Assembly: GCA_038064675.1 (NCBI GenBank)
Contig: JBBTSM010000003.1
Coordinates: 102,663-166,662 of the forward strand
From: Patescibacteria group bacterium
Lineage (GTDB): Bacteria; Patescibacteriota; Patescibacteriia; UBA9934
Reading direction: 5' to 3'
Length of the DNA stretch: 64,000 nt
In this document: positions 39,050 through 64,000 of the stretch, one piece after another
Position numbering within the stretch: the stretch's first letter is position 1
How the letters are laid out: each line of letters begins with the position of its first letter
The notes under the pieces: model-generated
What the model saw: the letters and a program-made list of their open reading frames with translations, nothing else
Databases searched by the model: none
What the model was told of the DNA's origin: nothing
Position numbers and translations under genes: made by a program

Positions 39050-39160
39050 TTCCTCATTTGGCCTATTTTCGACTCACGTCTTCGCAAACTTGCTCAACGC
39101 ACCATGAAGTACGCCTCGCAAGCTTTGCTCGCCGTTCATCGAAACTAGTCTCAAATGTGA
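39050..39160 (+). repeat. copy 1 of a ~110-bp MITE-like intergenic element with terminal inverted repeats CCTCATTTGG / CAAATGAG; sits upstream of rplU
   Basis: About 88% identical to copy 2. Same orientation relative to the downstream gene in all four copies. Confidence 0.55.
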
Positions 39161-39185
39161 AAGTTCTGTTAGATTTGTGCTGCTG

Positions 39186-39214
39186 AGGCGACGAGGAAAC
39201 CCTCGTGCTTTTTT
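39186..39214 (+). terminator. plus-strand terminator GACGAGG-AAAC-CCTCGTG plus T6, located just downstream of repeat copy 1
   Basis: There is no plus-strand gene upstream other than the element. Confidence 0.4.
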
Positions 39215-39247
39215 GCCTATTGCAAGCCAAAATGTGCGAAAAGAGTA

Positions 39248-40291
39248 TCAGGAAGCCTTGGAATCGTCAAGGTATTTCGCTAACAGGCTAATGCCGATAA
39301 TAGCCAAAATTCCAAGAAAACCCAACGCAATCACCTTTTGCCAGCTGGCAAACAGCAGGCTCGTTACCCCAAATGCCAGGGCAAGGAGCGAGTAGAGCAG
39401 CGTAACCTGCCGAGGCGACAGGCCAGCATCGCGAAGCATAAAGTGGAAGTGTCGGCGATCGGCGGTGGTAAACGGGTTCTTCCCTGCTCGCCACCTGCGA
39501 ATCGCGACGAGGCCGACATCAATCGCGGGAATGCCAAGGACGAGAAGTGCCGTGGCCATCTTGCTGCCAGCGATCACAGAGAGAACACCAACCGTGAATC
39601 CAAGAACCGTACTCCCCGATTCTCCAAGGAAGATCTGTGCCGGATGCCAGTTCCAGAGGATGAAGCCCAGAATCGATGCGGAGAAGATCAGAGCAAGAAG
39701 TGCGACATCGGATTGGAAATATGTTGGCGTCAGTGCGAGTGCGGCGATCATGAGTGATCCGACCAATGACACGCTCGATGCCAAGCCATCAACCCCGTCG
39801 AGGAGCTTCGTCGTCATCGTCATCGCAAGAATCCACACGAATGCAACAACCGACGCTACAATCGGCGCGAGTACGATGACCCCACCAAACGGATTCGTCA
39901 TCTTTGCAACGTTGATGCCGCCGAGGACTGCGACAAGGGATGCGAGGACGAACAGCATCATGGAATACTTCGCCGATATCGCGAATCGATCATCAACAAC
40001 ACCGCCGATCGTGAGGATCGCGATTCCGATGAAAAATCCAATGAAGTGATGGACGCCAATCGCGCCACTCGTGAGCTCGGTCGATGAAAGAAGAACGCCG
40101 ATCGTCACCATCGAAAAACTCGCAACGATCGCGAGGCCGCCAAGAAGTGGTGTTGGTTCGCGATGCAATTTTCTGCCACCGTCTGGAGAATCGATCACGC
40201 CGAAGCGCAATGCCAATAATCGAACGACCGGCGTGAGCCAAGCCGAGATCAGGAATGCGAGAGCGATGGGAATTGGCCACCAAGAAACCAT
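39248..40291 (-). CDS. polyprenyl-phosphate N-acetylhexosamine-1-phosphate transferase (MraY/WecA/TagO family, GT4)
   Basis: Multi-pass membrane protein with motif KLLDGVDGLAS. Confidence 0.55.
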   Translation of the reverse strand: MVSWWPIPIALAFLISAWLTPVVRLLALRFGVIDSPDGGRKLHREPTPLLGGLAIVASFSMVTIGVLLSSTELTSGAIGVHHFIGFFIGIAILTIGGVVDDRFAISAKYSMMLFVLASLVAVLGGINVAKMTNPFGGVIVLAPIVASVVAFVWILAMTMTTKLLDGVDGLASSVSLVGSLMIAALALTPTYFQSDVALLALIFSASILGFILWNWHPAQIFLGESGSTVLGFTVGVLSVIAGSKMATALLVLGIPAIDVGLVAIRRWRAGKNPFTTADRRHFHFMLRDAGLSPRQVTLLYSLLALAFGVTSLLFASWQKVIALGFLGILAIIGISLLAKYLDDSKAS

Positions 40292-40309
40292 ATGCGGCCA
40301 GAGTAACGA

Positions 40310-41713
40310 TTAGGACGGCATCAGTCCAGGAATCGCCTCACTCATCGTCGGATATGCGTGAATCATCGATTGAACGGTATCGATCGTAAGTCCAGCGAAC
40401 ATTGCCAACGCAAGCTCGTGAATCACTTCGCCGGATCGATCACCGAGCATCGATGCGCCGAGGATGAGATATGACCTCTTCTCGACGAAGACTTTGAGCA
40501 ACCCAATTCGTTCGCTTTCGATAACAGCGCGACCAAGCGCGCCGACTGGAAATTTCCAGACGGTAAACGATTTCTTTTTTGCGACGAGCTCATCTGGCAT
40601 TGCACCAACCGATGCAAGTTCTGGCGCAACGAATGTTACTCGAGGAACAACGGCAAGATCGACACTCGCGAATTTCTTCTTTCCCTGCGCGAGGAGCGCT
40701 GCGTTCTTTCCGGCAATCGCTCCTTCGTGATGCGCGGTGTGGGTGTATGCCGGCAAACCAGAAACATCTCCAGCAAGAAATATCGCCTGGCCTTTTATGC
40801 GCATCGCGGAATCGATTAGCATCCTGCCCGTCGCATTACGCTTCACGCCGGCATTCTCGAGACCGAGCGATTCAACATTCGGTACACGTCCAGAAGCGAT
40901 GAGAAGCCTTTCGACACGAACAGTTTTTCGTGGTTCAGACTTCGTTTGAAATGTGATACGGATCTGACGACCAGTTTTTGCCACACCAAGCACACGCGTG
41001 TCGCCGTGAAATGTTACGCCGCGATGCATGAGTGTTTTTGCTGCGAGCGCAGCCGTCTCTGCGTCTTCGCGAGGAAGCAAACGATCAGCGATATCGAAAA
41101 CAATGACGGGAATACCAAGCAACGAAAAGAATGTCGCGAACTCGCAACCGATTGGGCCGCTACCGAGAATCGCAATCGATTCTGGCAACTCAGTGATTGA
41201 TGTTGCTTCGCGTGGCGTCCAGTAGTCGACCGAATCAATCCCGGCGATTGGCGGAATCTTTGGCACCGATCCTGTGGCGATAACAAAAGATTTCGCACTA
41301 ATGATGTGCGTGCCGACACGAATCGATTCGTCGTCGATGAAGCTCGCGGCGCCACGGAAGATTGTTACTTTTTCCTTTTCAAGAATCTTCTCCAATCGTC
41401 GGCCGCCAGTCATCGCGTTCACCACGGCGTCTTTACGCTCCATCATCGCTGGAAGATTGAACGTTAACCGCTTCACGTCGATTCCAAATCGCGCACCGTT
41501 TCGTCGAATGTCGTCGTATCGAACCGCCGCAGCGAGCATCGATTTCGTTGGAACACACGCGTAGTTTGGACATTCGCCACCGAGTTTATCGGATGACACA
41601 ATCGCAACGCTCGCGCCTTCTTGTCGCGCAGCAAATGCCGCAGAAAGCCCCGCAGAGCCTCCGCCGATAACGACAACATCGAATCCGGTTTTATGAGCTG
41701 GGGTTTTAGGCAT
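40310..41713 (-). CDS. FAD-dependent pyridine nucleotide-disulfide oxidoreductase (dihydrolipoyl dehydrogenase / mercuric reductase class)
   Basis: GFDVVVIGGGSAG and the redox-active GGECPNYACVPTK motif. Confidence 0.6.
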   Translation of the reverse strand: MPKTPAHKTGFDVVVIGGGSAGLSAAFAARQEGASVAIVSSDKLGGECPNYACVPTKSMLAAAVRYDDIRRNGARFGIDVKRLTFNLPAMMERKDAVVNAMTGGRRLEKILEKEKVTIFRGAASFIDDESIRVGTHIISAKSFVIATGSVPKIPPIAGIDSVDYWTPREATSITELPESIAILGSGPIGCEFATFFSLLGIPVIVFDIADRLLPREDAETAALAAKTLMHRGVTFHGDTRVLGVAKTGRQIRITFQTKSEPRKTVRVERLLIASGRVPNVESLGLENAGVKRNATGRMLIDSAMRIKGQAIFLAGDVSGLPAYTHTAHHEGAIAGKNAALLAQGKKKFASVDLAVVPRVTFVAPELASVGAMPDELVAKKKSFTVWKFPVGALGRAVIESERIGLLKVFVEKRSYLILGASMLGDRSGEVIHELALAMFAGLTIDTVQSMIHAYPTMSEAIPGLMPS

Positions 41714-41807
41714 AATAAAACGGTTGAGGCGGTCAAAATGGTTAATCGGGATTACCCTTGGTTAAGGGAATGACCATTTGACCAAGCGTAGCGATTGACC
41801 GCGCCCA

Positions 41808-43157
41808 TTACACAACAAGCGGTAAATCGCGCCACACCTTTTCGTCGCCGCGCAGTAACGATTCCACGCGATACGCTCCATGTGTTGGGGCATTCGTAAA
41901 TCCGCTCCACGCCATACGCGCGAGCGCCCCGCTCTCGATCCAATCGAATAACCACTCATTCATATACTGCGGCGCAAGACCATCAGCGCCTCCCCCAACG
42001 TACGTCAGCCACGCGCGATTAAAGTCTTCTTGGCTTCCAACCGTTGGCGCCATGATGATTGGAATTGCTAAGCCGGTGTAGAACGAAAGCTCGGACGGCT
42101 TCGTCCAAAGAATATCCGTCTTGCGCATCAATTTTGAAAACGCAGAAAAATACGCGGGACGATTGTCTTCAAAAAGAATGGTAACTTTTCCTGCACGCTT
42201 TGCACTTACCAATCCATCCAAACGAATCTCGCGTTCAAAGAATTCGTTCACTTCCGGTCGCGTTCCCGCAACAAGGTTCACGATGATTCGTCCAGCACGA
42301 ATATCCCCAGCTAACGATCGAAGCGCGAGAGCCACGACCTCGCGCTGCGTGCCCGCACCGCCAACCGCAAACGTAATCGATGGCGTGGTCGGTTTCACCG
42401 CACAAAACTGTTTTCCGAATGTTGCGTCGAGAAGTGAATGTGCTTTAGCAACAAAATTTCCATGCGGATCAAGATTGCACATGCGTCGTTGTAAATCCGC
42501 GCGCACATATTCTGGAACGTGCGGGCCACCAACCGTTTCAAATGGCAACGGGAATCCTGTCAGCGTAATGTTCTTTTCTTTCACGCCGTACAACTTCAAT
42601 CGCTCAACGACTCGTCCGGTTGGTGCCAAGTATTTGATTCTGCTCTTCTTCGGATTAAGGGGCACCCAAGCTCTTGCGATATCTGCATCACAAAGCACGA
42701 TGTAAATATCCTCAGGATAATCGAACTCCTCTGCGGCAAATGCGGGAGTGAAGAATGTAGAAACAATCGGCAGCGGCCGTTCCTTGAATCGTTCGATGAG
42801 ATCGCGACACATCCCTTGCCGACGAATCAGTGCGTACGTTTGCCGAACCTGCAGGCTTGGTTTCGAAAGATCACGACGCGGATAAAACTCCGGAATACGC
42901 TGCATCTTATCCATGATGCCGAATGCCGTCGTCCCGAGGATTGGGACGTTCTTAAATCGTGAAACAAATTCGTAAAAACTCTTCCCCGTTTCCCAAAGCC
43001 TTCGCTCATGCGCCGGAATGCCAGGATAATCATTTGCCACCGTTACTTGCCCACCAGGAGCAAGGTGCCGCAACGCAAACGCGGCCCGCTCGTGGCCATA
43101 ACCCATATTGACCGCAACAACGTGCGCCAATGCTTTCCCCCTTATTTTCTCCTCCAT
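41808..43157 (-). CDS. hypothetical protein, possibly a GT-B glycosyltransferase
   Basis: N-terminal VAVNMGYGHERAA resembles the G-x-GH motif of MGDG-synthase/UgtP-like enzymes. Weak evidence. Confidence 0.3.
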   Translation of the reverse strand: MEEKIRGKALAHVVAVNMGYGHERAAFALRHLAPGGQVTVANDYPGIPAHERRLWETGKSFYEFVSRFKNVPILGTTAFGIMDKMQRIPEFYPRRDLSKPSLQVRQTYALIRRQGMCRDLIERFKERPLPIVSTFFTPAFAAEEFDYPEDIYIVLCDADIARAWVPLNPKKSRIKYLAPTGRVVERLKLYGVKEKNITLTGFPLPFETVGGPHVPEYVRADLQRRMCNLDPHGNFVAKAHSLLDATFGKQFCAVKPTTPSITFAVGGAGTQREVVALALRSLAGDIRAGRIIVNLVAGTRPEVNEFFEREIRLDGLVSAKRAGKVTILFEDNRPAYFSAFSKLMRKTDILWTKPSELSFYTGLAIPIIMAPTVGSQEDFNRAWLTYVGGGADGLAPQYMNEWLFDWIESGALARMAWSGFTNAPTHGAYRVESLLRGDEKVWRDLPLVV

Positions 43158-43167
43158 ACGCTTAGGG

Positions 43168-43280
43168 CTTCCTCATTTGGTCTATTTTCGACTCACTTCG
43201 TCGCAAAATCGCTCAACGTACCATAAAGTACGCCTCGCGATCTTTGCTCCTCGTTCATCGAAACTAGCCTCAAATGAGAA
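43168..43280 (+). repeat. copy 2 of the MITE-like element, upstream of gene 41808..43157
   Basis: Aligned to copy 1. Confidence 0.55.
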
Positions 43281-43305
43281 ACCCCTAATTTGAATAAATC
43301 ATATC

Positions 43306-43338
43306 ATAAATCGAAGACCGCTCTCAGTGTTGAAAGCG
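43306..43338 (+). terminator. plus-strand terminator GACCGCT...AGCGGTC plus T7, downstream of repeat copy 2
   Basis: Same arrangement as at copy 1. Confidence 0.4.
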
Positions 43339-43353
43339 GTCTTTTTTTCTTTT

Positions 43354-43764
43354 CTATGCAAGTTTTCGTTCCAGTCGCGTTACCCGAGCATTTAACGTGT
43401 TGAACTGCGGCTGAATATTATCTTCAATAATGTCGATGATCTCATCACGCATATTGGAAAATCCTTTTTCCATTGTGGCTATAAGCTCTCCGCGAACCCG
43501 ATCAATTTTCTGATCGAGTCCCATGTGGACGCTGTCCATCTTCTGATTGAGTGACTCGTAAACGCCGTCGATCTTTTTATCAAGAGATTCGTAAACGGAA
43601 TCAATCTTCTGATCCAGCCCCTCGCGAACGCCGTCGATCTTCTGATCGAGAGCCCCATGGACACCATCGATCTTCTGATCGAGAGCGTTAAATCGCTTCT
43701 CGAACTTCTCATCCTGCACTGAAAACATTTCTCGTAACACCTGAATATCACTGGCATCAAGCAT
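43354..43764 (-). CDS. coiled-coil protein with six tandem 11-residue (hendecad) repeats LDQKIDGVxxx
   Basis: ALDQKIDGVHG ALDQKIDGVRE GLDQKIDSVYE SLDKKIDGVYE SLNQKMDSVHM GLDQKIDRVRG. Confidence 0.5.
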   Translation of the reverse strand: MLDASDIQVLREMFSVQDEKFEKRFNALDQKIDGVHGALDQKIDGVREGLDQKIDSVYESLDKKIDGVYESLNQKMDSVHMGLDQKIDRVRGELIATMEKGFSNMRDEIIDIIEDNIQPQFNTLNARVTRLERKLA

Positions 43765-43950
43765 AAATTTTGATGCTACACGAGCCTCCGCCGCCTTCCC
43801 TCGCGCGCGTGTCGTGAGAATAAATTCCAGTCACCAGGGAATGATTTTATATTAGCACAATTTCTCCGCCGAACCAACGACGAATATTTGCCCTAAAAGT
43901 CGAAAAGCGCCTCCCTGCGTGGAGGCGCCCTCGTGGATCCGTGATGGGGA

Positions 43951-44466
43951 TCAGTCGATGTACGTGACGGTGTTGTGTCGCGCGTACGTGATGCCGATGC
44001 CGGCACCGACCTGGTTGGTGAAGTACCGCACATCGTGGTACTCAGCTCCCCCAACCCCGAAAGTACCGTAAGGCACCAGGATGAAATCGGACGAGAGCTG
44101 GAAGCGCGGCCCGACCTTGAGCTCAACCAGAGCCCGCGTGTCGGTAAGGTCACCGAACACCTCGCTCTCGAAACGGGCGGAGATCCGCATATCGATACGG
44201 TCGGCCTCGATCCCGAGGCCGAGAAGCACCGCCGCGCCGAAGGAATCACCCTTCGCCAGCGTCAGCCCGTACCCGACGATCGGAGCAACGATGAGTCCGC
44301 TACCCGTCTGGAACTCGACGCCGCCGGTCACGAGGACCTCCCACGCGGGAAGAAACTCGCGGCCCTTGGGTGCGGAGAGACTGAGGAAATCACGCATCTG
44401 GACGCCAGTTTCGACGCCGGCCGCGAGGCTTGCAGCAGAGGCAAAGGACGAAAGAAGAAGCAACAT
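43951..44466 (-). CDS. signal-peptide-bearing beta-barrel outer-membrane-like protein
   Basis: Signal peptide MLLLLSSFASAASLAAG. Alternating hydrophobic beta-strand pattern. Gly-rich. Confidence 0.35.
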   Translation of the reverse strand: MLLLLSSFASAASLAAGVETGVQMRDFLSLSAPKGREFLPAWEVLVTGGVEFQTGSGLIVAPIVGYGLTLAKGDSFGAAVLLGLGIEADRIDMRISARFESEVFGDLTDTRALVELKVGPRFQLSSDFILVPYGTFGVGGAEYHDVRYFTNQVGAGIGITYARHNTVTYID

Positions 44467-44586
44467 CAGAACTCCAGGGGTAGGTTCGGTGCGCAGCCAA
44501 GCAAAGAAACTTCGCTGACCACCGAGCCTACCCCAACCGATCTGAACAATAAATAATAACAGAAAAATGCCGTTTTGTCAACGAAT

Positions 44587-44612
44587 TTCGCAATATTCTT
44601 CGCAAATATTCG
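44587..44612 (+). promoter_or_regulatory. tandem direct repeat TTCGCAATATTC / TTCGCAAATATTCG in the divergent promoter region between the OMP-like gene and rpmB
   Basis: Read directly. Candidate -35 TTGACA lies just downstream, and TTGCCA-17-TAGCAT further on. Confidence 0.2.
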
Positions 44613-44724
44613 CCAAGAAATATGTTGACACCCTAAAAAAACGACCGATTCCCTGTCCACCGCTGAGATTTGCCAAATTTATAGGGTTCAGGTAGCATTC
44701 CCGCATTCGAAACCATCTCTACTT

Positions 44725-44955
44725 ATGAGCAAAGTCTGCATGATCACGGGGAAAACCCCATTGACTGGCAACAATGTCAGCCACTCCAACGTCAAATCGA
44801 AGCGTCGCCAGATGCCAAATTTGCAAAAGAAAACGGTGATTAACCCAGCAACCGGCAAGCCAGTGGTGCTCATGGTTTCTAGCCGCGGCATCCGCACCCT
44901 TGCAAAGTGGGTACGTGAAGGCAGCAAAGTCGATCTCCGCTACTTCATCGAGTAA
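44725..44955 (+). CDS. rpmB: 50S ribosomal protein L28
   Basis: MSKVCMITGKTPLTGNNVSHSNVKSKRRQMPNL. Confidence 0.8.
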   Translation: MSKVCMITGKTPLTGNNVSHSNVKSKRRQMPNLQKKTVINPATGKPVVLMVSSRGIRTLAKWVREGSKVDLRYFIE

Positions 44956-44962
44956 TCAATAA

Positions 44963-44993
44963 ACCAAAAACGCCCCGAGCAATCGGAGCGTTT
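44963..44993. terminator. bidirectional terminator ACGCCCCGA-GCAA-TCGGAGCGT flanked by A and T runs
   Basis: Read directly. Confidence 0.45.
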
Positions 44994-45003
44994 TTGTTTT
45001 TCA

Positions 45004-46002: not shown

Positions 46003-46116
46003 AGAAAAAAATCATATCTGAAATCTGAAGAATTGTCACATTTCCTCCGACCATCCACAGCCAGAGATTCCTCCCCGTTTTAATCATGAGACAATCGCCT
46101 TAGCCACGGAGAGTTC

Positions 46117-47361: not shown

Positions 47362-47367
47362 CGACGA

Positions 47368-48688: not shown

Positions 48689-48764
48689 GCCGAAATAGCT
48701 CAGCTGGTAGAGCAACGGTTTTGTAAACCGTAGGTCACCGGTTCGAATCCGGTTTTCGGCTCCA
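48689..48764 (+). tRNA. tRNA-Thr (anticodon TGT)
   Basis: Perfect cloverleaf: GCCGAAA...TTTCGGC T CCA; anticodon loop TTTGTAA. Confidence 0.8.
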
Positions 48765-48765
48765 G

Positions 48766-48851
48766 GGGTTGGTACTCAAGCGGTCAACGAGGAGAGACTG
48801 TAAATCTCTTGGCTTGCGCCTTCGAAGGTTCGAATCCTTCCCAACCCACCA
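48766..48851 (+). tRNA. tRNA-Tyr (anticodon GTA), long variable arm
   Basis: GACTGTAAATC anticodon arm; TTCGAAGGTTCGAATCCTTC T-arm; encoded CCA. Confidence 0.8.
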
Positions 48852-48853
48852 TC

Positions 48854-48978
48854 AGAAAAGCTCATAAAATTGCCCAGGGCGTTGTCGTCGCCTTGCGCCC
48901 CGTCCTCACCGTACACTGTGGTACGCCTCGGACGGTGCTCGGCTCCTCCTAGCCCTGAACAATTTTATGAGCTTTTCT
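48854..48978. repeat. a perfect 19-bp inverted repeat (AGAAAAGCTCATAAAATTG / CAATTTTATGAGCTTTTCT) flanking an ~88-nt GC-rich core, directly after tRNA-Tyr
   Basis: Read directly. Could be a MITE-like insertion or a structured RNA. Confidence 0.5.
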
Positions 48979-49044
48979 CATTCACTTTGTGCCGATTCGT
49001 AAGAATTTGAAATGATAAGACCGGAAAAAGTGCTAAGTTTGCGT

Positions 49045-49105
49045 AGTGCTAGGAGCGGCGAGGATCGCAGCGAAACGTACTTCACGGTACGTTGAGCGAG
49101 AACCG
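49045..49105 (-). repeat. copy 3 (core only) of the MITE-like element, upstream of tRNA-Thr(GGT)
   Basis: GTACTTCACGGTACGTTGAGCG matches the reverse complement of the core of copies 1 and 2. Confidence 0.45.
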
Positions 49106-49149
49106 GAGCAAGCAACAACGCAATACGCAAACTTGGGCACATTTTCCCC

Positions 49150-49225
49150 GCCGCAGTAGCTCAGATGGTAGAGCGCATCCATGGTAAGGATGAGGTCTCG
49201 GGTTCGATCCCCGACTGTGGCTCCA
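49150..49225 (+). tRNA. tRNA-Thr (anticodon GGT)
   Basis: GCCGCAG...CTGTGGC T CCA; anticodon loop ATGGTAA. Confidence 0.8.
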
Positions 49226-49258: not shown

Positions 49259-49375
49259 TAGCGCCTTCTTTACTTTCCCCCATTTTTCTGCCTATACTTC
49301 CCCGTCATGCTTTCGAGCCTGACAGCCCCGTGGCGAGGTTTCGCCGATTGTCCGCGTACAAAATCAGGAGCAGCC

Positions 49376-49954
49376 ATGCTCATCTCGCTTCTTCTCGGTC
49401 TCGCCCTCGCGCCCGAGGCGTCGGCAGCCACGCTGTCGCCGCAAATCCTCATGAAGGTCCACAGCCGGATCCACCTCGAGGGAGACGGCGACTGGGACTT
49501 CGGAGTATTCACAAGCGGGTTGATGATCACGAGCGGATCCCCCCTGTCCTTCTGGTACGTCGGCCCGGGAAAGCAGATCACCCCGTGGTGGTGGTCGAGC
49601 GTTCGTCCCGGCATCGTGTTCAACTTCCCGACCGGGGGCGACGCGATGCCCATCATCTCCTGGTGGAATTCGCTTGATCCCACGGATGATTTCTCGTTCT
49701 TCCTGGAGGGCGACTACTACCCCGTCAGCCTGAAGGGCAGCGATCCCATCTACTACGGGTACTACGGCGCAAGCTACACGCCGAAGATCTTCGACCTGGG
49801 CGTGCAAGCTGAACAGGTAAACCTAAGCCTGACGGCGGGCCCGCACGCCCTCATCAAGCTGGGCAAGTTCATCACCACCGGGGCGGAGTACTACTGGGAC
49901 TTCAAGAAAGGCCACACCGTCCGCATCATCTTCGACGTTGGAGCAGACATGTGA
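49376..49954 (+). CDS. secreted hypothetical protein, aromatic-rich; first gene of the GC-rich islet
   Basis: Internal Met preceded by a CAGGAG Shine-Dalgarno. Signal peptide MLISLLLGLALAPEASAATLS. Confidence 0.45.
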   Translation: MLISLLLGLALAPEASAATLSPQILMKVHSRIHLEGDGDWDFGVFTSGLMITSGSPLSFWYVGPGKQITPWWWSSVRPGIVFNFPTGGDAMPIISWWNSLDPTDDFSFFLEGDYYPVSLKGSDPIYYGYYGASYTPKIFDLGVQAEQVNLSLTAGPHALIKLGKFITTGAEYYWDFKKGHTVRIIFDVGADM

Positions 49955-50027
49955 CGCACCGCCCTCGGTGGCCGGCCACACGGGCCGTCCTCAGTGGGCG
50001 GTTTCGTGTTTTCAGCACCTTGTTTAA

Positions 50028-50056
50028 TTGATTCTTTCGTCATTTCCGTCTACAAT
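50028..50056 (+). promoter_or_regulatory. promoter TTGATT-17-TACAAT followed by the conserved leader GTTTGGTCCGCTCCTTCG
   Basis: Paralogous to the element at 50743-50772. Confidence 0.4.
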
Positions 50057-50131
50057 GTTTGGTCCGCTCCTTCGAGCCGACAACCTGCAGCGAGGATTCG
50101 TTGCTCCATTCTCACACCGCAGAGGTGCCCT

Positions 50132-50668
50132 TTGACGCATTTCATTTCAGATCTTCTTCTTGTTTGCTCCACCGACGAGGCAGAGCATTTCCTTCAGCCC
50201 ATGCTCAACGCGGCACTCGACGTCGTCCTGCCGCTGGCCCAGGTTCTGGACCCCACCGATACGGGCGTCGTGTTCATGTTCTGGCGCATCGGCGACGACG
50301 GGCACAGACCGCTCGTCGTGCTCCGCGGCGGCAATGTGTCGCCCGAGAAGGACGGCTGGTACATGGAGAACGCCATGCGGAAGCTGGCCGCGCTCGCGGA
50401 CAACCCGGGCATCGTCTCCACGGCCGAGGTCGCCAATCCGACCGTCGAGCTCTTCGGCGGCGGCACGCGGCTATTCGACGGGCGCCTCGCCTACATCTCC
50501 GCGGGCCTCAACTCCTGGTTCGACGAAATGGTGGACTGCATCATGGCCTGGAGCATCGGCCACACGACCGTAGCGGAGATGCGCCGCGTGGCGGAGATCA
50601 GTAAGAACCCGCATCTCAACGCCTACCTCGACGACCTCGAAGGGAAGCTCCGAAGAGTGCGACAGTAG
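50132..50668 (+). CDS. hypothetical cytoplasmic protein, paralog A (TTG start, MTHF...)
   Basis: High GC3 in this frame. Homologous to 50847..51386 from the first residues onward. Confidence 0.45.
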   Translation: MTHFISDLLLVCSTDEAEHFLQPMLNAALDVVLPLAQVLDPTDTGVVFMFWRIGDDGHRPLVVLRGGNVSPEKDGWYMENAMRKLAALADNPGIVSTAEVANPTVELFGGGTRLFDGRLAYISAGLNSWFDEMVDCIMAWSIGHTTVAEMRRVAEISKNPHLNAYLDDLEGKLRRVRQ

Positions 50669-50683
50669 CGCACGACAACGCAG

Positions 50684-50720
50684 CCCCGCGACGAGAGCCC
50701 CACGCTCCGGCGCGGGGTTT
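50684..50720 (+). terminator. conserved terminator CCCCGCG-ACGAGAGCCCCACGCTCCGG-CGCGGGG plus TTT
   Basis: An ~75-nt block duplicated at 51400-51436. Confidence 0.45.
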
Positions 50721-50742
50721 CTCAGTTTTAAGGAATTATTCG

Positions 50743-50772
50743 TTGTTTTTTCTCTCAATCTCTGTATAGAAT
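50743..50772 (+). promoter_or_regulatory. promoter TTGTTT-18-TAGAAT followed by the conserved leader GTTTGGTCCGTTCCTTCGGGG
   Basis: Paralogous to 50028-50056. Confidence 0.4.
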
Positions 50773-50846
50773 GTTTGGTCCGTTCCTTCGGGGCCGGGCC
50801 AGGGGCGAACCATCGCTCAGAAACGTATCGTCTAGGAAGGGCTCCA

Positions 50847-51386
50847 ATGACCCCGTACGAACTCATCGATTCCAACGGACCCGAAGCCGAAGTAGCGCTG
50901 CTCGCTGCATTCACACACGCGCTCGGTTGCGTGCTCCCGCATGTGGCTTCCCCCGCCGGGTCAAACGACCCGGAGGTGCTCCTCGCCTTCTACCGGTGGG
51001 AGTCCAAGGATCACGAGCCGAAAGCGTTCCATAGGCGGGCATTCGTCAGCAACGAGGCAGTCCCCAGCGGCTCCGTTCGAGGGCACATCGCGGCCACTGT
51101 CCCGATTGCCCAGGCATTCGGCAGCTACCATCTGGGCGCCTCGTCCCTCCAGGGTCGGGATGAAGCTGCCGGAGTGCTCGGTGGTGGGGTGCGCATCAAC
51201 CGCGATTTCGTCTTCATCACCACCGGCAAAATTCCTGAGTGGGCCCGGGAGATGGTCTCCATCCTGACGGCGGTGAAGCTCGAGCTCTTGAGCCCTATCC
51301 AAGCCCGTCTGATCGCACTCGCCAGCGACAACACACATCTCCTTCGCCACACCTTCGCCCAGGCTGAAACGGAAAAGGAAGGATAG
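50847..51386 (+). CDS. hypothetical cytoplasmic protein, paralog B (MTPY...)
   Basis: AGGAAGG Shine-Dalgarno 6 nt upstream. Shares blocks with paralog A: PEAE/DEAE, VLP, GGG(V/T)R, EMV. Confidence 0.45.
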   Translation: MTPYELIDSNGPEAEVALLAAFTHALGCVLPHVASPAGSNDPEVLLAFYRWESKDHEPKAFHRRAFVSNEAVPSGSVRGHIAATVPIAQAFGSYHLGASSLQGRDEAAGVLGGGVRINRDFVFITTGKIPEWAREMVSILTAVKLELLSPIQARLIALASDNTHLLRHTFAQAETEKEG

Positions 51387-51399
51387 TGCGACAACGCAA

Positions 51400-51436
51400 C
51401 CCCGCGACGAGAGCCCCACGCTCCGGCGCGGGGTTC
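51400..51436 (+). terminator. second copy of the conserved terminator block
   Basis: Aligned to 50684-50720. Confidence 0.45.
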
Positions 51437-51501
51437 TCTGATTTTAAGAAAAATTGTTCTTTCCCCGATTTTTTGCTACGATTCCCCCTTCAAAACTTCC
51501 T

Positions 51502-56608: not shown

Positions 56609-56671
56609 ACTTTCCAACAATTATGGAACAATCCCTCCGCTGATCGTCCATTCGATCGAGCAAGGATTTTC

Positions 56672-57181: not shown

Positions 57182-57396
57182 ACAGCCGCACACTCACGCA
57201 ACGCCCCGCAGAGAACGAAGCGCCCTGCTCGTTCATCGAGTGGGGCGTTTCCGATTTCAAAAATTCCGCCCTGCAAACGTAAACAATCTTTACAAAAGCC
57301 AAGAAATTGGCTAAGGTTCGCAATGCTAAACGGCAATCCTGCCCAAGGCACCAATCTCCAAATAATCGTTCATGAACGAACGATTGGGAGTGCGAC

Positions 57397-58362: not shown

Positions 58363-58381
58363 GATCGGCACGACGAACGAA

Positions 58382-58413
58382 GCGCCCCGGAACTCTTGCG
58401 AGATCCGGGGCGC
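58382..58413 (+). terminator. hairpin GCGCCCCGGA...TCCGGGGCGC
   Basis: 10-bp stem, but the following U-run is weak. Confidence 0.3.
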
Positions 58414-58455
58414 GACGCGTTTATAAGGATTCGAGACGGCCCAGCGGGCGCGTCT

Positions 58456-59229
58456 CTACGGAATCAGTTTTTCTTCAAACTCCGTGATCTTTTGGTTATC
58501 GGGATTCACTTCGCGTAAGTGGTCGAGGGACTTCTTTGCCTCAGCGACCTCGCCGATCTCGAAGGCGGCGGTGATGAAGAAGTCGAGGTATTTCGGGTTG
58601 TTCGGGCTGATCGTCTTTGCCTTCTCGTAAAATCCGTATGCAGTTTTCATGTCGCCTTCGGCATCGAATACTTCACCGAGGGCCGCGAGAACGCTGGCGT
58701 CTTTCGGCGCAAGCTTTACGAGGAACTCGAGGGCCTCCTTCGCTTCCGCGTGCTGACCTTGCGACAAGTACATGCGGCCAAGCGTTTCGTATGCCTGAAC
58801 ATTCTTTGGGTCGTGGGAGAGTACTTCCACCAGCTCCTGTTCAGCAGCTTCGTACTTTCCGAGTGAGATAGACTTCTTCGCTTCGCCGGTCATGCGCTGC
58901 AACTCTGCAGTATCAATCTTTCCTGCTCGCTGACGCTCCACATATCGTCGTTCAAGCGCAGTGAGTTTTCCCGCAAGGCGTTGGAAACCCTCTTGAATCT
59001 TTTTCGCCACTGGAAGTATCGATGCCTTCCAAAAGTTCTTTCCCTTCTCTTCCACCTGTCGCATCATGCGCTCTTCAAGTAACGCATTCTTCTTCTCTCG
59101 CGTTCGTGCTTCTTTCGACGACATCGGATCAACAATAGAAAGTTGCGGAGCCTTCTGCTTCGCGATGACGACGATCGTGCCAAGCGAACCGAGAAACATC
59201 ACCCAGAGCAACCCATCAATAATCGTCAT
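58456..59229 (-). CDS. membrane-anchored TPR-repeat protein
   Basis: N-terminal TM segment and TPR-like repeats (AYETLGRMYLSQGQHAEA...). Confidence 0.5.
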   Translation of the reverse strand: MTIIDGLLWVMFLGSLGTIVVIAKQKAPQLSIVDPMSSKEARTREKKNALLEERMMRQVEEKGKNFWKASILPVAKKIQEGFQRLAGKLTALERRYVERQRAGKIDTAELQRMTGEAKKSISLGKYEAAEQELVEVLSHDPKNVQAYETLGRMYLSQGQHAEAKEALEFLVKLAPKDASVLAALGEVFDAEGDMKTAYGFYEKAKTISPNNPKYLDFFITAAFEIGEVAEAKKSLDHLREVNPDNQKITEFEEKLIP

Positions 59230-59993
59230 ACGTTTTGCGCAATCATCACTTCCCTGCCTGCGCCGATAATTGCCTCAAACTCGTGAATCTTCACACTCGC
59301 ACCGCCAACCAACACGCCGTCGATTCCTGGCTCACGCAAGAAGCTGTACGCATTCGCACCGTCCACCGATCCACCATAGAGCACCTGCGCGGTTGCGCCG
59401 ATATTGATCTTCTTCAATGATTCACGAATCACATTATGCATTGCAATGGCGTCAGCTGGAGTTGCGCTCACCCCAGTACCAATCGCCCAAATCGGCTCAT
59501 ATGCCACAATCAATCGGGACGTTTTCGTCATCGTCACGCCACGAAGCGCAGCGCCGAGTTGTTGTGCAACGAACTCTTCCGCCTTTCCTGCAGTGCGAGT
59601 CTCTTTCGATTCACCAACACACAAAACCGGAACGAGCGATGTTTGAGCAATCAATTTCATCTTGGCATTCACCACGGCATCCGATTCTCCGTTCATTGCT
59701 CTACGCTCGGAATGACCGATAATCACGAATCCGCAACCAGCATCATCGAGTTGCGCGGCAGAGACGTCGCCGGTGAATGCGCCAAAGCGCTCAGTTCCCA
59801 TCGTCTGTGCCCCGAGAGCAACACGAGTACGAACAAGAACCTTGCGAACTTCCGATAACGCCGTGAACGAAGGGCAAATCACAATTTCTGGCAGAACCTC
59901 ATGTCCCATTACCGATCGCAACACTCCACGCGCGTGCGCGATGGACTCTCGAATACCGAGATGCATTTTCCAATTGCCGATAATGGTTTTCAT
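59226..59993 (-). CDS. tpiA: triosephosphate isomerase
   Basis: IIGNWKMH; AYEPIWAIGTG; YGGSV. Confidence 0.8.
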   Translation of the reverse strand: MKTIIGNWKMHLGIRESIAHARGVLRSVMGHEVLPEIVICPSFTALSEVRKVLVRTRVALGAQTMGTERFGAFTGDVSAAQLDDAGCGFVIIGHSERRAMNGESDAVVNAKMKLIAQTSLVPVLCVGESKETRTAGKAEEFVAQQLGAALRGVTMTKTSRLIVAYEPIWAIGTGVSATPADAIAMHNVIRESLKKINIGATAQVLYGGSVDGANAYSFLREPGIDGVLVGGASVKIHEFEAIIGAGREVMIAQNV

Positions 59994-60045
59994 ATTTTTT
60001 CATTCAGTCATCCCCGCGTAGGCGGGGATGACCAGAGCAAACGGG

Positions 60046-61332
60046 TCACGAAGGCAATAGTAACTTCAATTCATCTTCACTCTTGAACGGGCCAATCGCC
60101 GCAAGCGACATGCGATCGAATCGCAAATACTGCCGCGCAACACGAGCGATGTCTTCAAGCGTGACGGCATCGAACTTCTTCAAACGCTCAGCCGGTTCCT
60201 CGATCGTGCCCAAGAACAACGCCTGTCGGCCGTAAAACTCTGCGCGATCTGCAGAATCTTCAAGGCTCAGCGATAAGCCGCCGCGAACATTCTCCTTCAC
60301 CATCGCAAGTTCATCGGCAGCAACTCCATCGACGGCAACCTTACGAAGTTCGTCAGTGATCACTTTCATCGCCTCTTGCAATCGCGTTGCGTCGAGTCCG
60401 GCACGAACCGTAAACATACCAATGTCTTGATATCCCTCAACACCCGTTCGAACCGTGTAACAAAGGCCGCGTCGCTCACGAACTTCCACAAATAATCGCG
60501 AGCTCATTGTTCCACCAAGAATCGCGGAAAGAAGTTTCAAAGGAGCCTCATCAACGTGACCACGGCCAACCGTTGGGAATCCGAGAGAAAGTTGAATCTG
60601 TTCAAGATCCTTGTGCTGATATCGAATGCGGCCAATGTTTGTCTGGTTTCCGACGACGCCGAAGGTTGACCGTGCCGACCCTGAAGGAGCAACGGTACCG
60701 AATGTTTCTTCGAGTTGATCAAGAATGTCTGCTGGTAACTTTCCAGACGCAACAATCACCATGTTCTCTGGTCGGTAATGCGATCCGTGGTACGCGATGA
60801 CGTCGTCACGTTTCATCGTCTTTACCGACTCTGCAGTACCGGCGATGTTCTTTCCGAGAATGTGACCATCGAACATCGCTTCCTCAAGAAGATCCTCGAT
60901 GTGCATGATTGGGTTTTCCTCGTACATTTTGATCTCTTCCACGATAACGTTCTTTTCACGCTCCATTTCTTCCGCGTTGAAGACGGAATGGAAAATCATA
61001 TCGTTGAGCAAGTCGATTGCAACCGGAAGCTGCTCTCCAGCAATCTTTACCCAGTATCCCGTGAGATCCTTTCCGGTGTACGCGTTGTATTGCGCGCCGT
61101 AGCGATCGAGTTCTTTCGAGATATCGACGGTTTGTGGTCGGCGCGTGGTTCCTTTGAACATCAAGTGTTCCACAAAATGCGAGCCACCCCACACATTGTC
61201 CGTTTCGTTTCGTGAACCAACCTGAAACGCAACAAGAATCGCCGCAGCGTCTGTACCAGAAAATGGGGCGAGTACAACCTTCGCACCATTGTTGAGATTC
61301 GATTGCGTAAAGGACATAGGCGGCAACATCAA
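60046..61332 (-). CDS. M16-family zinc peptidase (insulinase / pitrilysin-like)
   Basis: Inverted zinc motif HFVEHLMFKGT (HxxEH). Confidence 0.65.
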   Translation of the reverse strand: MMLPPMSFTQSNLNNGAKVVLAPFSGTDAAAILVAFQVGSRNETDNVWGGSHFVEHLMFKGTTRRPQTVDISKELDRYGAQYNAYTGKDLTGYWVKIAGEQLPVAIDLLNDMIFHSVFNAEEMEREKNVIVEEIKMYEENPIMHIEDLLEEAMFDGHILGKNIAGTAESVKTMKRDDVIAYHGSHYRPENMVIVASGKLPADILDQLEETFGTVAPSGSARSTFGVVGNQTNIGRIRYQHKDLEQIQLSLGFPTVGRGHVDEAPLKLLSAILGGTMSSRLFVEVRERRGLCYTVRTGVEGYQDIGMFTVRAGLDATRLQEAMKVITDELRKVAVDGVAADELAMVKENVRGGLSLSLEDSADRAEFYGRQALFLGTIEEPAERLKKFDAVTLEDIARVARQYLRFDRMSLAAIGPFKSEDELKLLLPS

Positions 61333-61872
61333 TTAAATTGTCGTGATTTCTTTTTCTTTCTTGTCTCCCATCTCTTCAATCTTTGCGGTAAATTCTTTCA
61401 CAGTCTTTTCCAGCAGCTCTTCCAAACGACGCTTCTCGTCTTCCCCTCCCTCAACCTTACCCATAGCCTTTCGCGTTTCTTCACGAACGCGGCGGATTTG
61501 CACACGAGCATCTTCAAGTTTTTCTTTTGCAAGCTTCACCATCTTCAAACGAGTCTCTTCCGTCATCATTGGCATGATGAGACGGAGCGTTTTTCCATCA
61601 ACGACAGGATTGATCCCAACATCGCTCTTCACAATTGCGGTTTCGATGAGCTTCACCACACTCGCGTCCCATGGTTCGATGAGAATGGTTTTCGCATCAG
61701 GGGTCGTGATGGTTGCGAGCGCCTTGATCGGCTGCAATGCACCGTACGCCTCAACCTGAACGGGCTCGAGAATTGCCGCAGAAGCACGGCCAGTACGAAT
61801 TGCGCCAAGCTCGTTCACGAGGTGCTCAAGAACTTTAGCAAACTGCGGTTTGGTGTCGTCGATAATGGACAT
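61333..61872 (-). CDS. frr: ribosome recycling factor
   Basis: IRTGRASAAILEPVQVEAYG... The track ORF opens at a GTG at 61890. The Met at 61872 (MSIIDD) aligns with the canonical Frr N-terminus. Confidence 0.8.
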   Translation of the reverse strand: MSIIDDTKPQFAKVLEHLVNELGAIRTGRASAAILEPVQVEAYGALQPIKALATITTPDAKTILIEPWDASVVKLIETAIVKSDVGINPVVDGKTLRLIMPMMTEETRLKMVKLAKEKLEDARVQIRRVREETRKAMGKVEGGEDEKRRLEELLEKTVKEFTAKIEEMGDKKEKEITTI

Positions 61873-61895
61873 AATTGTTTGAATGTTCACTGCCT

Positions 61896-61924
61896 ATTCT
61901 AGACCAATCACCACGCACCGTCAA
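61896..61924 (-). promoter_or_regulatory. sigma70-like promoter TTGACG-17-TAGAAT for frr
   Basis: Read on the minus strand. Confidence 0.4.
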
Positions 61925-61980
61925 CGCGGTACGTGGTGATATTTTGCGAACTTCTGCGAAGTTTCTGTGTGGATTCGCGT

Positions 61981-63042
61981 CTATTTCTTCGTCACCGTCG
62001 CCGAGCCGAGATAGACATGCGTGTTGTTGGCAGGATCTACGAGAAGCGCCATTGCTGCGCGCGTTGAAGGAAGCTCGCTCGTCGTCCATGCGCTGCCGCC
62101 GGATGTTGAGCGATTCACCGTGGAATCCGTTCCGTAGTAGATGATGTCGCCGTTATCTGGTGCGATTGCAACAGAGTAGATGCGTACTTCACCGCTTGCG
62201 GAGATCAACGACACGCCAGACCATGTCGCGCCCTTGTCCTTAGATACAAGCAATCCGTACTGCGTGTTCATAACAAGGACGGATCCATCGGCATTTTGCG
62301 CAAATCCGTACACGCGGTCCGACGACTTGTAGTCTTTCAACGTTTTTTCAAAGCTCACCCAGTTTGCGCCGCTGTCTTCCGTGCGCTGCAACCCACTGGT
62401 TTTTGTTCCGACGAACACGATTCTGCTGTCTGCGCCGCTAATGGCAAGCGCAGTCACCGATGAATCGGTTCGTGTAATCGTCGCCCAGCTTCCGCCGCCG
62501 TCCACGGATCGAATAACGTCACCAGCGGTGTTGCCGATCCAAACAATCGAAGGATCGTACCAATCAAGCGCCATCGCAGAGATGGTCGTCTTCGCCTGGC
62601 TTTCCACGTACACGCCAGCATCAAACGTTCGTCCGCAATCAACCGTCTTCATCACGCGGTCTTCCTTTGCTACGAAGTACGTACAGACGTCCTTGGAACT
62701 AACAGCGATGGCGACGATTGCGCCAGACGTTGCAAGATCTTCCTCCGGCCGTTGCCACGATGCGCCACTGTCCAAGGAATAGAACATGCCGTTCGCAACA
62801 GTTCCAGCATAAATCGCGGAGCTGTCTTGAGGATCGACAGCGAATGTTGTCACGTCAACATTCTCAAGTGAACTTGTTCCTGTTGCGGTTGGCACCACTG
62901 CAGTTTGTTCCCACGTCTTTGATGCGTCGGCAGACTGCCAAACGCCACCCGTGGTTACGGCAGTGCTCCCGCCACCAAAGCACCCCGCACCAGTTAATGT
63001 GAGCGCCGCAAATGCAGCACCAAAGCGAAAAAGTTTATTCAT
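61981..63042 (-). CDS. BNR/Asp-box repeat beta-propeller lipoprotein
   Basis: Lipobox LTLTGAGC. Six SxDxGxTW-type motifs: SLDSGASW, TVDCGRTF, SVDGGGSW, TEDSGANW, SKDKGATW, STSGGSAW. Confidence 0.5.
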   Translation of the reverse strand: MNKLFRFGAAFAALTLTGAGCFGGGSTAVTTGGVWQSADASKTWEQTAVVPTATGTSSLENVDVTTFAVDPQDSSAIYAGTVANGMFYSLDSGASWQRPEEDLATSGAIVAIAVSSKDVCTYFVAKEDRVMKTVDCGRTFDAGVYVESQAKTTISAMALDWYDPSIVWIGNTAGDVIRSVDGGGSWATITRTDSSVTALAISGADSRIVFVGTKTSGLQRTEDSGANWVSFEKTLKDYKSSDRVYGFAQNADGSVLVMNTQYGLLVSKDKGATWSGVSLISASGEVRIYSVAIAPDNGDIIYYGTDSTVNRSTSGGSAWTTSELPSTRAAMALLVDPANNTHVYLGSATVTKK

Positions 63043-63790
63043 ACTTCCCCAATTGTAGCGCAAGTTGCTCGAAGGCGATTGTGGAATTCCCGTTTCCCGC
63101 AATTCGCTCCCGTGTTTTGAGCACGGCATCGAGCGCTTTCGACGTGGCTCGACCCGATCGCTCCAACTCGGCAACCAACGCACCAAGGAGCTCATCAACA
63201 TCGAGAACGTCGCGTTTCCCAAGGCTTTGTGCGACTTTCAATCGATCAACAAGAGACGACGACGTGAGGTTTTTTACATCCTCAAGGCATTCTGGTGAAA
63301 CTGCACGGTCGATGTTTGGCGCAAACGGAATGGTGACGGTTCGCGAAAGGACTGTGGGTAACATAGACGAAAGCTCGTGAACAACCAGGATGACGACGGT
63401 TTTCCCCGCCGGTTCTTCGAGAGTCTTCAGTAGTGCATTTTGTGCCGCGGTCGATAACACGTTCGCGTCGTCAAAGATTGCGACCGTCTGACCGTAAACC
63501 GCCGACTGGCCAAGCCGAACCAGAGCATCCCGAATATCGTCTAAATCGTACGCTTTCGATCCGGAATCGCGAGTGATCGGCGCCATGCCAATGAAGTCTG
63601 GATGGCGTGAGAGCTCGTCGTTTTGGACCCCAAGAAGCCCCGCAGCAAGCGCGCGAGCCACCATTGACTTTCCCGAATGTTCTGCTCCGGCAAGCACCAA
63701 ACCGTGCGGAAGTGTACCGCGTTCCAGCATACCCAAAAGTGCTGAAATCTGAGGTTTATGCCCGGAAATATGCGAAAAGCTGTCCATCAT
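63035..63790 (-). CDS. holB: DNA polymerase III delta-prime subunit-like AAA+ protein
   Basis: GLVLAGAEHSGKSMVARALAAGLL; sensor segment VILVVHELSSMLPTVLSRT. Confidence 0.55.
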   Translation of the reverse strand: MMDSFSHISGHKPQISALLGMLERGTLPHGLVLAGAEHSGKSMVARALAAGLLGVQNDELSRHPDFIGMAPITRDSGSKAYDLDDIRDALVRLGQSAVYGQTVAIFDDANVLSTAAQNALLKTLEEPAGKTVVILVVHELSSMLPTVLSRTVTIPFAPNIDRAVSPECLEDVKNLTSSSLVDRLKVAQSLGKRDVLDVDELLGALVAELERSGRATSKALDAVLKTRERIAGNGNSTIAFEQLALQLGKYE

Positions 63791-63794
63791 ATGC

Positions 63795-63823
63795 TTGACT
63801 TTTCTGCGATTTTCTGCTATTCT
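63795..63823 (+). promoter_or_regulatory. promoter TTGACT-17-TATTCT reading towards repeat copy 4 and a gene beyond the window
   Basis: Read directly. Confidence 0.35.
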
Positions 63824-63947
63824 ACCCGGTTCGCTTCGTTTCCGATAGAAGCAAAAACTCAAACCGAGTGCATGAAGATATTCGTGCCCTCAGTGCGAGA
63901 TATCGCAGATTCACAATACAAAAGTCACTCGAACAGAGAACGTTCCA

Positions 63948-64000
63948 CATTTAGACTAGTTTCGGTGCGCGTCGAGCAAAGCTCGCGAGACGTACTCAAG
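63948..64000 (-). repeat. copy 4 (partial, truncated by the window end) of the MITE-like element
   Basis: CATTTAGACTAGTTTCGGTGCGCGTCGAGCAAAGCTCGCGAGACGTACT aligns to the reverse complement of copies 1 and 2. Confidence 0.45.

Follow-up and report, generated by a model that had tools for sequence, protein, structure and literature searches.

Introduction

Miniature palindromic repeats are normally the lineage-specific debris of local insertion sequences (IS). The Correia/NEMIS elements of Neisseria and the ERIC/IRU, RUP and YPAL repeats are imperfect palindromes of 100-155 bp, with many intergenic transcribed copies and TA junctions. Elements of the Correia/NEMIS type show insertion polymorphism from strain to strain and are co-transcribed as a long RNA hairpin, and their families are limited to a genus or family and defined by terminal repeats. 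Known repetitive extragenic palindromic sequences (REPs) measure 20-40 nt, carry GTAG and are each specific to a genus, and the REPINs are extragenic hairpins of about 100 nt made of two inverted halves, present in high copy number and often placed between convergent genes. In the attC sites of integrons the base is conserved (R''/R' core sites, RYYYAAC/GTTRRRY) and the top varies; in usual (DDE) transposon ends the termini are the most conserved part, and the 38-bp ends of the Tn3 family, whose outer GGGG is invariant, produce a duplication of 5 bp. Transcribed MITEs (miniature inverted-repeat transposable elements) like Correia/NEMIS are among the subjects covered in a review by Delihas (PMC2229807), and REPINs are described as REP doublets mobilised by RAYT (REP-associated tyrosine) transposases (PMC3337134, PMC2817692). 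Here we describe a hairpin repeat found in a stretch of 64,000 nt, called the window below (contig JBBTSM010000003.1, positions 102,663 to 166,662, assembly GCA_038064675.1), which comes from a Candidatus Uhrbacteria genome of the Candidate Phyla Radiation (CPR) from Hainich groundwater, well H41. It belongs to a cross-phylum family that seems uncatalogued and whose defining feature is an invariant tip. The element is mobile, it has a hairpin structure that spans its whole length, and it folds preferentially on one strand.

Results

Five copies of the repeat

A covariance model of the repeat (R1; 137 positions, 50 pairs) was built from 35 diverse family members, with the structure derived from the consensus of single-sequence folds; plain MAFFT followed by RNAalifold recovered the tip alone and not the full structure. 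Searching the window with R1 gave five copies, and none in the first 39 kb. Each copy is an imperfect hairpin of about 125 nt (range 125-133 nt) with its arms paired end to end, and no conserved open reading frame (ORF) was found inside the repeat.

39045..39170, minus strand: copy 1, complete hairpin (R1 match 39038-39173, 94.5 bits, E = 5e-25)
39092..39119, minus strand: tip of copy 1, GCGAGG-CGTACT-TCAT-GGTGCG-TTGAGC, pattern GCGANNCGTACT-N6-10-CGTTGAGC
43164..43289, minus strand: copy 2, complete hairpin (R1 match 43157-43292, 104.9 bits, E = 4e-28)
43211-43238, minus strand: conserved tip of copy 2, same pattern
48849..48983, minus strand: copy 5, degenerate, in inverted repeat (R1 match 55.2 bits, E = 1.8e-13)
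49030..49140, plus strand: copy 3, complete, of a different subfamily (R1 match 49017-49153, 94 bits, E = 7e-25)
49070-49097, plus strand: conserved tip of copy 3, same pattern
63931..64000, plus strand: copy 4, 5' half, cut by the window end (R1 positions 1-70, E = 1e-3)

The copies lie in the 5' leaders of rplU and of a DUF6938 gene, and in the spacers of a tRNA operon. The 3' end of copy 1 is 5-9 nt upstream of the rplU ATG (39035), that of copy 2 is 6 nt upstream of the ATG (43157) of the 449-aa DUF6938 gene, and copy 3 ends about 9 nt before the start of tRNA-Thr(GGT) (49150). Copy 3 has the same tip as the other copies and different stems. Copy 5 follows tRNA-Tyr directly on its 3' side and runs antisense to the tRNA operon; its tip is CCGAGG-CGTAC...GTACG-GTGAGG. 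The gene downstream of copy 4 is out of view, all other assemblies obtained ending in this copy too.

An earlier sequence-only reading of this DNA had counted four copies, two of them full and about 88% identical, with inverted termini. The repeat is real and copies 1 and 2 (39049-39162 and 43168-43281) are indeed direct repeats, with 89% identity, but the degenerate minus-strand copy 5 was overlooked. The inverted termini, CCTCATTTGG...CAAATGAG, are also present, but they are only the base of the hairpin. Three occurrences of the 21-nt core CTCAACGYACCRTRAAGTACG were counted in the window and none in 100 shuffles, and copy 4 forms an inverted repeat with copy 1 (80% identity).

A common tip in distant phyla

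The tip pattern was used for an exact scan of one genome per species, which gave at least 119 loci; in about 109 among the matches listed, the pattern sits at the tip of a long hairpin. By record label the hosts comprise Nitrospira, with the cultured N. moscoviensis among them, Rokubacteria/Methylomirabilota, Limnocylindria, Thermoanaerobaculia, Syntrophales, Desulfobacteraceae, Geobacteraceae, Planctomycetales, Omnitrophota, one Bacillota metagenome-assembled genome (MAG) and several Pseudomonadota MAGs, and within the CPR they are Uhrbacteria, Peregrinibacteria and Saccharimonadia. The tip is almost identical across these bacteria, labelled as about ten phyla. Many loci came from some single genomes, with up to four copies in an 8-kb locus.

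The family does not seem to have been catalogued. Rfam 15, searched at the gathering threshold and with E up to 10, gave no match at the elements of the window and of six loci from other phyla, and no description was found in the literature by sequence and keywords, outside subscription journals. In PLSDB plasmids, BLAST with two family members gave chance matches or none. The IMG/VR viral contigs contained six matches to the core pattern, all of them without the hairpin, and there is no sign of a phage vector.

Some of the labels look doubtful. In a contig labelled 'uncultured Gammaproteobacteria' (L075, 808-1032) the element forms a locus with tRNA-Ser, and the flanks of this locus are orthologous to those in an Uhrbacteria MAG (L092, 3854-4074). 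L027 and L036 carry the same label as L075, and such labels from co-assembly bins affect the count of phyla.

The hairpin is also seen with inserts. Four Nitrospira copies (L013 ~1000-1060, L119 ~3295-3340, L044 ~4830-4880 and L055 ~2820-2870) are split by a second repeat (GTTCACG..CGTTTGTGAAC...GGCGGCAGTGTC) at symmetric positions of the inner stem, beside GAG/CTC, and it seems that this other element targets the hairpin. Four Rokubacteria copies (L042 3570, L077 6232, L081 7676, L094 5442) have an insert of about 70 nt in the apical loop. The same loop insert (CCGCTTGGCGAGCCGAGCCGGAGGCGAG...) is found in three loci, so variants with a cargo in the loop also propagate.

Filled and empty sites in close relatives

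Four related loci, L125, L126, L127 and L128, encode rplU proteins with identities of 94%, 94%, 88% and 80% to that of the window. No more than 79-80 nt separate the glycosyltransferase gene from rplU in these loci, and when this spacer is aligned on both sides with the window spacer, copy 1 appears as a clean gap of 133 nt. The opposite case is found as well: L125 has a copy (8732-8867) between the genes for an FAD-oxidoreductase and the glycosyltransferase, antisense to both, where the window spacer is 18 nt. In the tRNA cluster the copies are at different positions, three in L113, one in L125 and two in the window.

L113: Thr, copy, Tyr, copy (minus), copy (plus), Thr
L125: Thr, copy, Tyr, 33 nt, Thr
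Window: Thr and Tyr adjacent, copy 5 (minus), copy 3 (plus), Thr

The site of copy 5 is empty in L125, being the 33-nt spacer, and copy 3 is absent. Since empty and filled sites occur in both directions among close Uhrbacteria relatives, the element is mobile and MITE-like. This part of the sequence-only reading holds: the element is small, palindromic, multi-copy and differs in presence between close relatives.

Independent assemblies have contigs that break within copy 2, within copy 4 and close to the tRNA copies, and the NCBI MAG contig stops 66 nt short of the DUF6938 gene, at the site of copy 2. Such breaks are expected of a repeat with high identity.

The 33-nt Tyr/Thr spacer of L125 (1139-1171) is itself a small hairpin, GAGAAAAGCTCG-GCAA-CGAGCCTTTCTC, whose stem matches the outer stem of copy 5 (window 48852-48981). 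Either copy 5 was inserted into the loop of an older hairpin, or the L125 hairpin is the remnant of a deletion. The whole tRNA-Thr/Tyr/Thr block (window 48689-49225, L125 827-1247) is inverted relative to the CYTH gene, the two being divergent in the window and co-directional in L125, with element copies at or near the block in both. In L125 a HlyD-like gene is directly joined to the tRNA cluster, and the block of three ORFs at 49307-51386 appears to be absent.

Most of about 25 Uhrbacteria-type copies have TA or CTA on both junctions. Copy 2 reads GGGGTTTC...GAAGCCC between two TA, and in L092 the element is GAAC...GTTC, likewise with TA on either side. CTA bounds both copy 1 and the L125 copy at 8732-8867 on both sides, in the element's own orientation. 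The Rokubacteria copies have (C)TAG on either side, abutting the stop codons of unrelated genes, and there a partial repeat of about 22 nt of the 5' end carries the element on to the second (C)TAG. As read from the sequences, the junctions would fit a TA or TNA target duplication.

Structure and strand preference

The hairpin has at its base an outer stem that varies, followed towards the tip by an A-rich/U-rich stem, a conserved internal loop, a variable stem and a GA/GA-type loop, and the apex is a 5-bp stem, CGUAC/GUACG, next to this GA/GA-type internal loop. The conserved internal loop is (C)AGAUGCRAGGC opposite AACGMMGCAGAUGG in most lineages. The tip consensus, GCGARR-CGUAC-loop-GUACG-UUGAGC, is nearly invariant, and its two arms differ in a conserved and strand-specific way, GCGARR on one side and UUGAGC on the other. 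The apical loop varies from 4 to about 75 nt with the stem retained. Conservation is high at the inner tip and low at the termini.

The outer stems covary. When 91 copies were aligned to R1, 81.5% of the cells were paired, as compared to 61% after shuffling and 31-43% with slid partners, and 43 of the 50 model pairs had changed on both sides. The pairs of the tip stem, CG/GC/UA/AU/CG, are retained in 85-91 of these 91 family members.

The RNA folds of copies 1, 2 and 3 gave -56.6 (z = -7.6), -61.7 (z = -9.4) and -48.8 kcal/mol for the strand that is sense to the gene, and -35.4, -39.2 and -40.2 kcal/mol for the opposite strand. The sense strand was the more stable one in 97 of 114 family copies from other genomes among the matches listed, with a median difference of -8 kcal/mol. 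This asymmetry comes mainly from the conserved purine-purine (G-A) loops and from two G-U/A-U pairs beside the tip; outside the tip the excess of G-U over A-C is modest, 195 to 139.

Orthologous copies were compared for copy 3, copy 5, L125:922 and L075:808, each with its partners in other genomes. The differences comprised ten compensatory double changes, eight changes between Watson-Crick and G-U pairs, two to A-C and seven other changes of pairs, and a further 37 at unpaired positions, which make up about a quarter of all positions. For instance, the L113 orthologue of copy 5 has three compensatory pair changes and that of copy 3 has three changes from Watson-Crick to G-U. Because orthologous copies differ mostly by changes that preserve the structure, the hairpin is kept up after insertion. 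To judge from these sequences, the maintenance could be due to selection on the folded strand or to repair templated by the palindrome.

Orientation and neighbouring genes

A census of the window's subfamily, in which metagenome contigs were scanned for Uhrbacteria-type arms and then searched with R1 and mapped for ORFs and tRNA genes, gave about 45 copies. About 11 independent copies are in sense orientation and end 2-10 nt before the mature 5' end of a tRNA, as compared to one antisense copy (L033; two-sided binomial p ~0.006). The tRNAs downstream of the sense copies are those for Thr, Tyr, Ser, Asp, Met, Val, Asn, Arg and others. Among the copies that precede protein genes, about 7 are sense and 4 antisense. 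Counting exact boundaries only (tRNA ends and stop codons), the 3' end of the element abuts the boundary about 24 times and the 5' end about 5 times.

According to the sequence-only reading, all copies were oriented in the same way relative to the downstream gene. This is false, since copy 5 is antisense to the tRNA operon, as are L125:8732-8867 and L033 to their neighbours. The bias itself is real for copies close to genes, about 11:1 at tRNAs, but it is not a rule. Replication strand was rejected as its cause: the GC skew is uniform over the window, and sense copies are present on both strands.

In Rokubacteria and Nitrospira the element is typically found between convergent genes, in either transcript orientation, and in about 45 loci its conserved 3' CTAG supplies or coincides with the TAG stop of the convergent gene. 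The idea that the element is the end of a larger unit in these bacteria was discarded, as the ORFs that end at the 3' end are mutually unrelated.

On a CPR contig (L134, 5630-7647) two opposite copies, 6120-6254 on the plus and 6754-6888 on the minus strand, are located between smpB and infC. Taken together with rplU and the numerous tRNA sites, they show a clustering of copies around translation genes.

Promoters and the adjoining hairpins

A consensus scan found no sigma-70-like promoter inside any of the window copies. Promoter-like sites were present upstream of copy 2 (43327-43298, minus strand) and about 110 nt upstream of copy 4 (TTGACT-17-TATTCT, 63795-63823, plus strand), so the hairpins of these two copies would be located within the 5' leader. 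On reading the sequences, no U-tract was seen after the hairpin in the Uhrbacteria-type copies in either orientation.

The hairpins with T-runs which had been read as plus-strand terminators following copies 1 and 2 do exist, but they are foreign to the element. The one at 39186-39214 is retained in all four related loci without copy 1, with three compensatory pair changes, which makes it an old feature of the host spacer, outside the element. In L125 it depends on a G-U pair of the gene-sense strand, in L128 it lacks the A/T-run, and, judged by this alignment, it is not a conserved plus-strand terminator. The other, at 43306-43338, is 16 nt past the stop (43354) of an upstream minus-strand gene of 136 aa. 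On the minus strand it has a 13-bp stem of -20.3 kcal/mol and it folds equally well there, and the simplest reading is a bidirectional terminator of the 136-aa gene. The two neighbouring 'terminators' are thus ordinary features of the host spacers.

The 136-aa gene (ORF 43354-43764) contains five 33-nt tandem repeats at 43501-43718, which encode an 11-residue unit (LDQKIDGV...) in a coiled-coil-like protein. It is missing at the corresponding place in L125.

Other repeats in the window

Three further repeats were noticed in the window. A single ORF of 3182 aa on the minus strand (28246-37794), probably encoding a giant surface protein, has about ten tandem repeats of 333-339 nt (~112 aa) that are 60-80% identical. 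A pair of 34-nt inverted repeats (6019-6052 and 7123-7156) is 94% complementary, and each arm is itself a palindrome between A- and T-runs (AAAAAATACAGCTGATGTCAGCTGTATTTTT), so that the pair looks like a bidirectional terminator in duplicate, at a distance of about 1.1 kb. A direct repeat of 63 nt (50673-50735 and 51389-51451, 87% identical) holds a GC-rich hairpin (CCCCGCG...CGCGGGG) followed by T's. These copies come after two small plus-strand ORFs that are adjacent to each other, 49994-50668 and 50775-51386, neither of which has a Pfam match.

Discussion

We consider the element to be a non-autonomous mobile hairpin repeat of the MITE-like kind, transcribed together with its neighbours, namely rplU, the DUF6938 gene and the tRNA operon, and give this reading a probability of about 0.55. 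An enzyme whose gene lies elsewhere in the genome would move it in trans, and this enzyme would recognise the folded tip and not the termini. Insertion would take place at TA-containing sites beside gene boundaries, after which the element would merely be co-transcribed, its sense RNA forming a closed and very stable hairpin (-49 to -62 kcal/mol). Where it directly precedes a tRNA or ribosomal-protein gene, it would survive mainly in the orientation that gives a compact hairpin transcript, and RNase P or RNase III would cut the hairpin off the mature RNA.

Several observations weigh against this. Variable termini and an invariant inner tip are the reverse of ordinary transposon ends, and the polarity of the 3' end (~24 to ~5) is unexpected for a DDE mechanism that duplicates TA. 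The TA duplication is ambiguous, since TA, being palindromic, could equally belong to the inverted repeat as its end, and reconstruction of the empty copy-1 site leaves a difference of 5 nt to the site of the relatives. In about 1 Mb of loci no arms were found separated by a transposase gene or another ORF; arms that were unpaired or 0.1-4 kb apart were just loop-insertion variants and chance half-sites. A Pfam scan of 19 ORFs near the copies gave housekeeping genes and no transposase. Compensatory changes, finally, can also arise in a DNA palindrome by template switching, without selection on the RNA.

The nearest rival departs from the favoured reading in the mobilisation mechanism alone. 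The element would then be REPIN-like, a hairpin of single-stranded DNA whose tip is recognised by an enzyme of the Y1/HUH type (RAYT, IS200-like) or by another structure-specific enzyme, with polar insertion at an asymmetric target such as CTA. The invariant tip with covarying outer stems, the loop of 4 to ~75 nt with the stem retained, the conserved difference between the arms, the better fold of the sense strand in 97 of the 114 copies, the strong polarity of the 3' end at tRNA and gene boundaries, and the CTA that bounds copy 1 and L125:8732-8867 in the element's own orientation would all suit such a mechanism. We still find it rather unlikely: no RAYT or Y1 gene was seen in the fetched loci of 8-20 kb, the ends are variable (TAG, CTA, TAA, TTA, TAC) with no conserved GTAG (CTAC) at the foot of the hairpin, and the known REPs are genus-specific, short and carry GTAG, unlike this element. 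The modest excess of G-U over A-C outside the tip and an orientation unlinked to the replication strand in the window also speak against it. Selection on the RNA itself is a different matter. A cis-acting module, acting as a processing signal for RNase III or RNase P between cistrons, as a 5' stabiliser, or as a site for an RNA-binding protein at the tandem G-A loops, would account for the sense copies upstream of about 11 independent tRNA genes and of rplU and DUF6938, for a tip invariant over about ten phyla, for orthologous copies that evolve with their pairing preserved and for the very stable sense RNA. It is made distinctly unlikely by the close relatives that lack the element at the same genes, by antisense copies in the same operons (copy 5, L125:8732 and L033) and by the Rokubacteria and Nitrospira copies, which are mostly between convergent genes in either orientation, and the covariation cannot tell an RNA from a DNA palindrome.

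The two roles put forward in the sequence-only reading fare worse. A portable promoter or UP element would have its -35-like hexamer supplied by the 3' arm (AAAATAGACM) and would, together with the TA-rich junction, drive the gene. By our own reading the L046 junction has TAGACA-16-TATAAG, that of copy 1 has the weak TAGGCC-16-TATATT, and the two conserved G-A mismatches yield TAGAC solely on the 3' arm. This explanation is nevertheless very improbable, with the consensus scan negative in every window copy. Only 0-4 nt separate the junction hexamer from the ATG or from the 5' end of the tRNA, a distance too short to allow for a start site, and several copies end 2-8 nt before the mature tRNA, which leaves no room for a junction promoter. 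The tRNA-adjacent copies of L092, L134 and L156 have no -10-like junction, most tRNA-adjacent copies lack the hybrid promoter, and copies 2 and 4 have their promoter-like sites upstream of the element instead. A divergent structured small RNA of about 170 nt, ending at the plus-strand terminators, finds some encouragement in the hairpins and T-runs 20-50 nt past copies 1 and 2 on that strand. The far more stable gene-sense strand, however, speaks against an RNA transcribed away from the gene; the away strand folds 10-22 kcal/mol worse in the window copies and worse in the same 97 of 114. The copy-1 hairpin predates the insertion, with the G-U pair and the missing T-run mentioned above, copies 3, 4 and 5 have no such terminator, and the consensus scan of copies 1 and 2 found no promoter for it, so that we regard this RNA as hardly credible.

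There is also a bolder reading, which we offer as speculation and hold to be doubtful. The hairpins could form a class of mobile structured nucleic acids that is new and is found in at least ten bacterial phyla, and the tip (the CGUAC stem with its tandem G-A loops) would dock a conserved protein. This protein would mobilise the folded single strand and place the element with fixed polarity against tRNA and gene boundaries, and the tRNA operons would release an abundant hairpin RNA of about 130 nt with a function of its own.

What a specialist would not expect is the conserved tip and the polarity beside tRNA genes. A tip common to CPR bacteria, Nitrospira and Rokubacteria, together with covarying stems, points to a shared recognition partner, and its conservation suggests spread across phyla in groundwater and soil communities. 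The element alters the 5' leaders of essential genes, rplU and many tRNAs, in organisms whose genomes are minimal, and metagenome assemblies frequently break at it, with several contigs ending inside copies. Because the cultivable Nitrospira moscoviensis carries the element, its transcription, processing and mobility are directly testable. Even if it is only a MITE, annotation gains a covariance model for a repeat missing from Rfam.

Comparison with known systems

In common with MITEs, the element is shorter than 300 bp and non-coding, it has inverted termini and its dispersed copies are polymorphic between relatives; a cognate autonomous IS with the same ends was not found in the fetched loci and the 19 ORFs. 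The likeness to Correia/NEMIS lies in the size, the whole-length palindrome, the transcribed intergenic sites, the TA junctions and the insertion polymorphism. The element differs in that its termini vary and an internal tip of 28 nt is conserved over about ten phyla, in its strong polarity beside tRNA genes, and in that no IHF (integration host factor) site, promoter or cognate IS was identified for it.

With REPINs it shares a strand-specific structure, the form of an extragenic hairpin of ~100 nt in two inverted halves with no internal transposase, the high copy number, and the frequent position between convergent genes. It has, however, no conserved GTAG/CTAC and no linked RAYT gene, and what it conserves is the apex and not two REP halves. 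REP sequences are also lineage-specific, which the tip of this element is not.

The attC sites resemble it in that the recombination substrate is a folded single strand, that the structure is conserved and the sequence variable, and that the polarity to the adjacent gene is fixed. The element is the other way around, with a variable base and an invariant apex, and core sites, cassette arrays and an integrase are all missing here. It is found upstream of rplU and tRNAs, among housekeeping genes, whereas attC is downstream of the cassette ORFs. With such a base, apex and neighbourhood, identity with attC was rejected. The terminal repeats of the Tn3 family and their miniature derivatives, in which no sequence similarity to the element was seen, are a precedent for transposon-end motifs that are recognisable across phyla.

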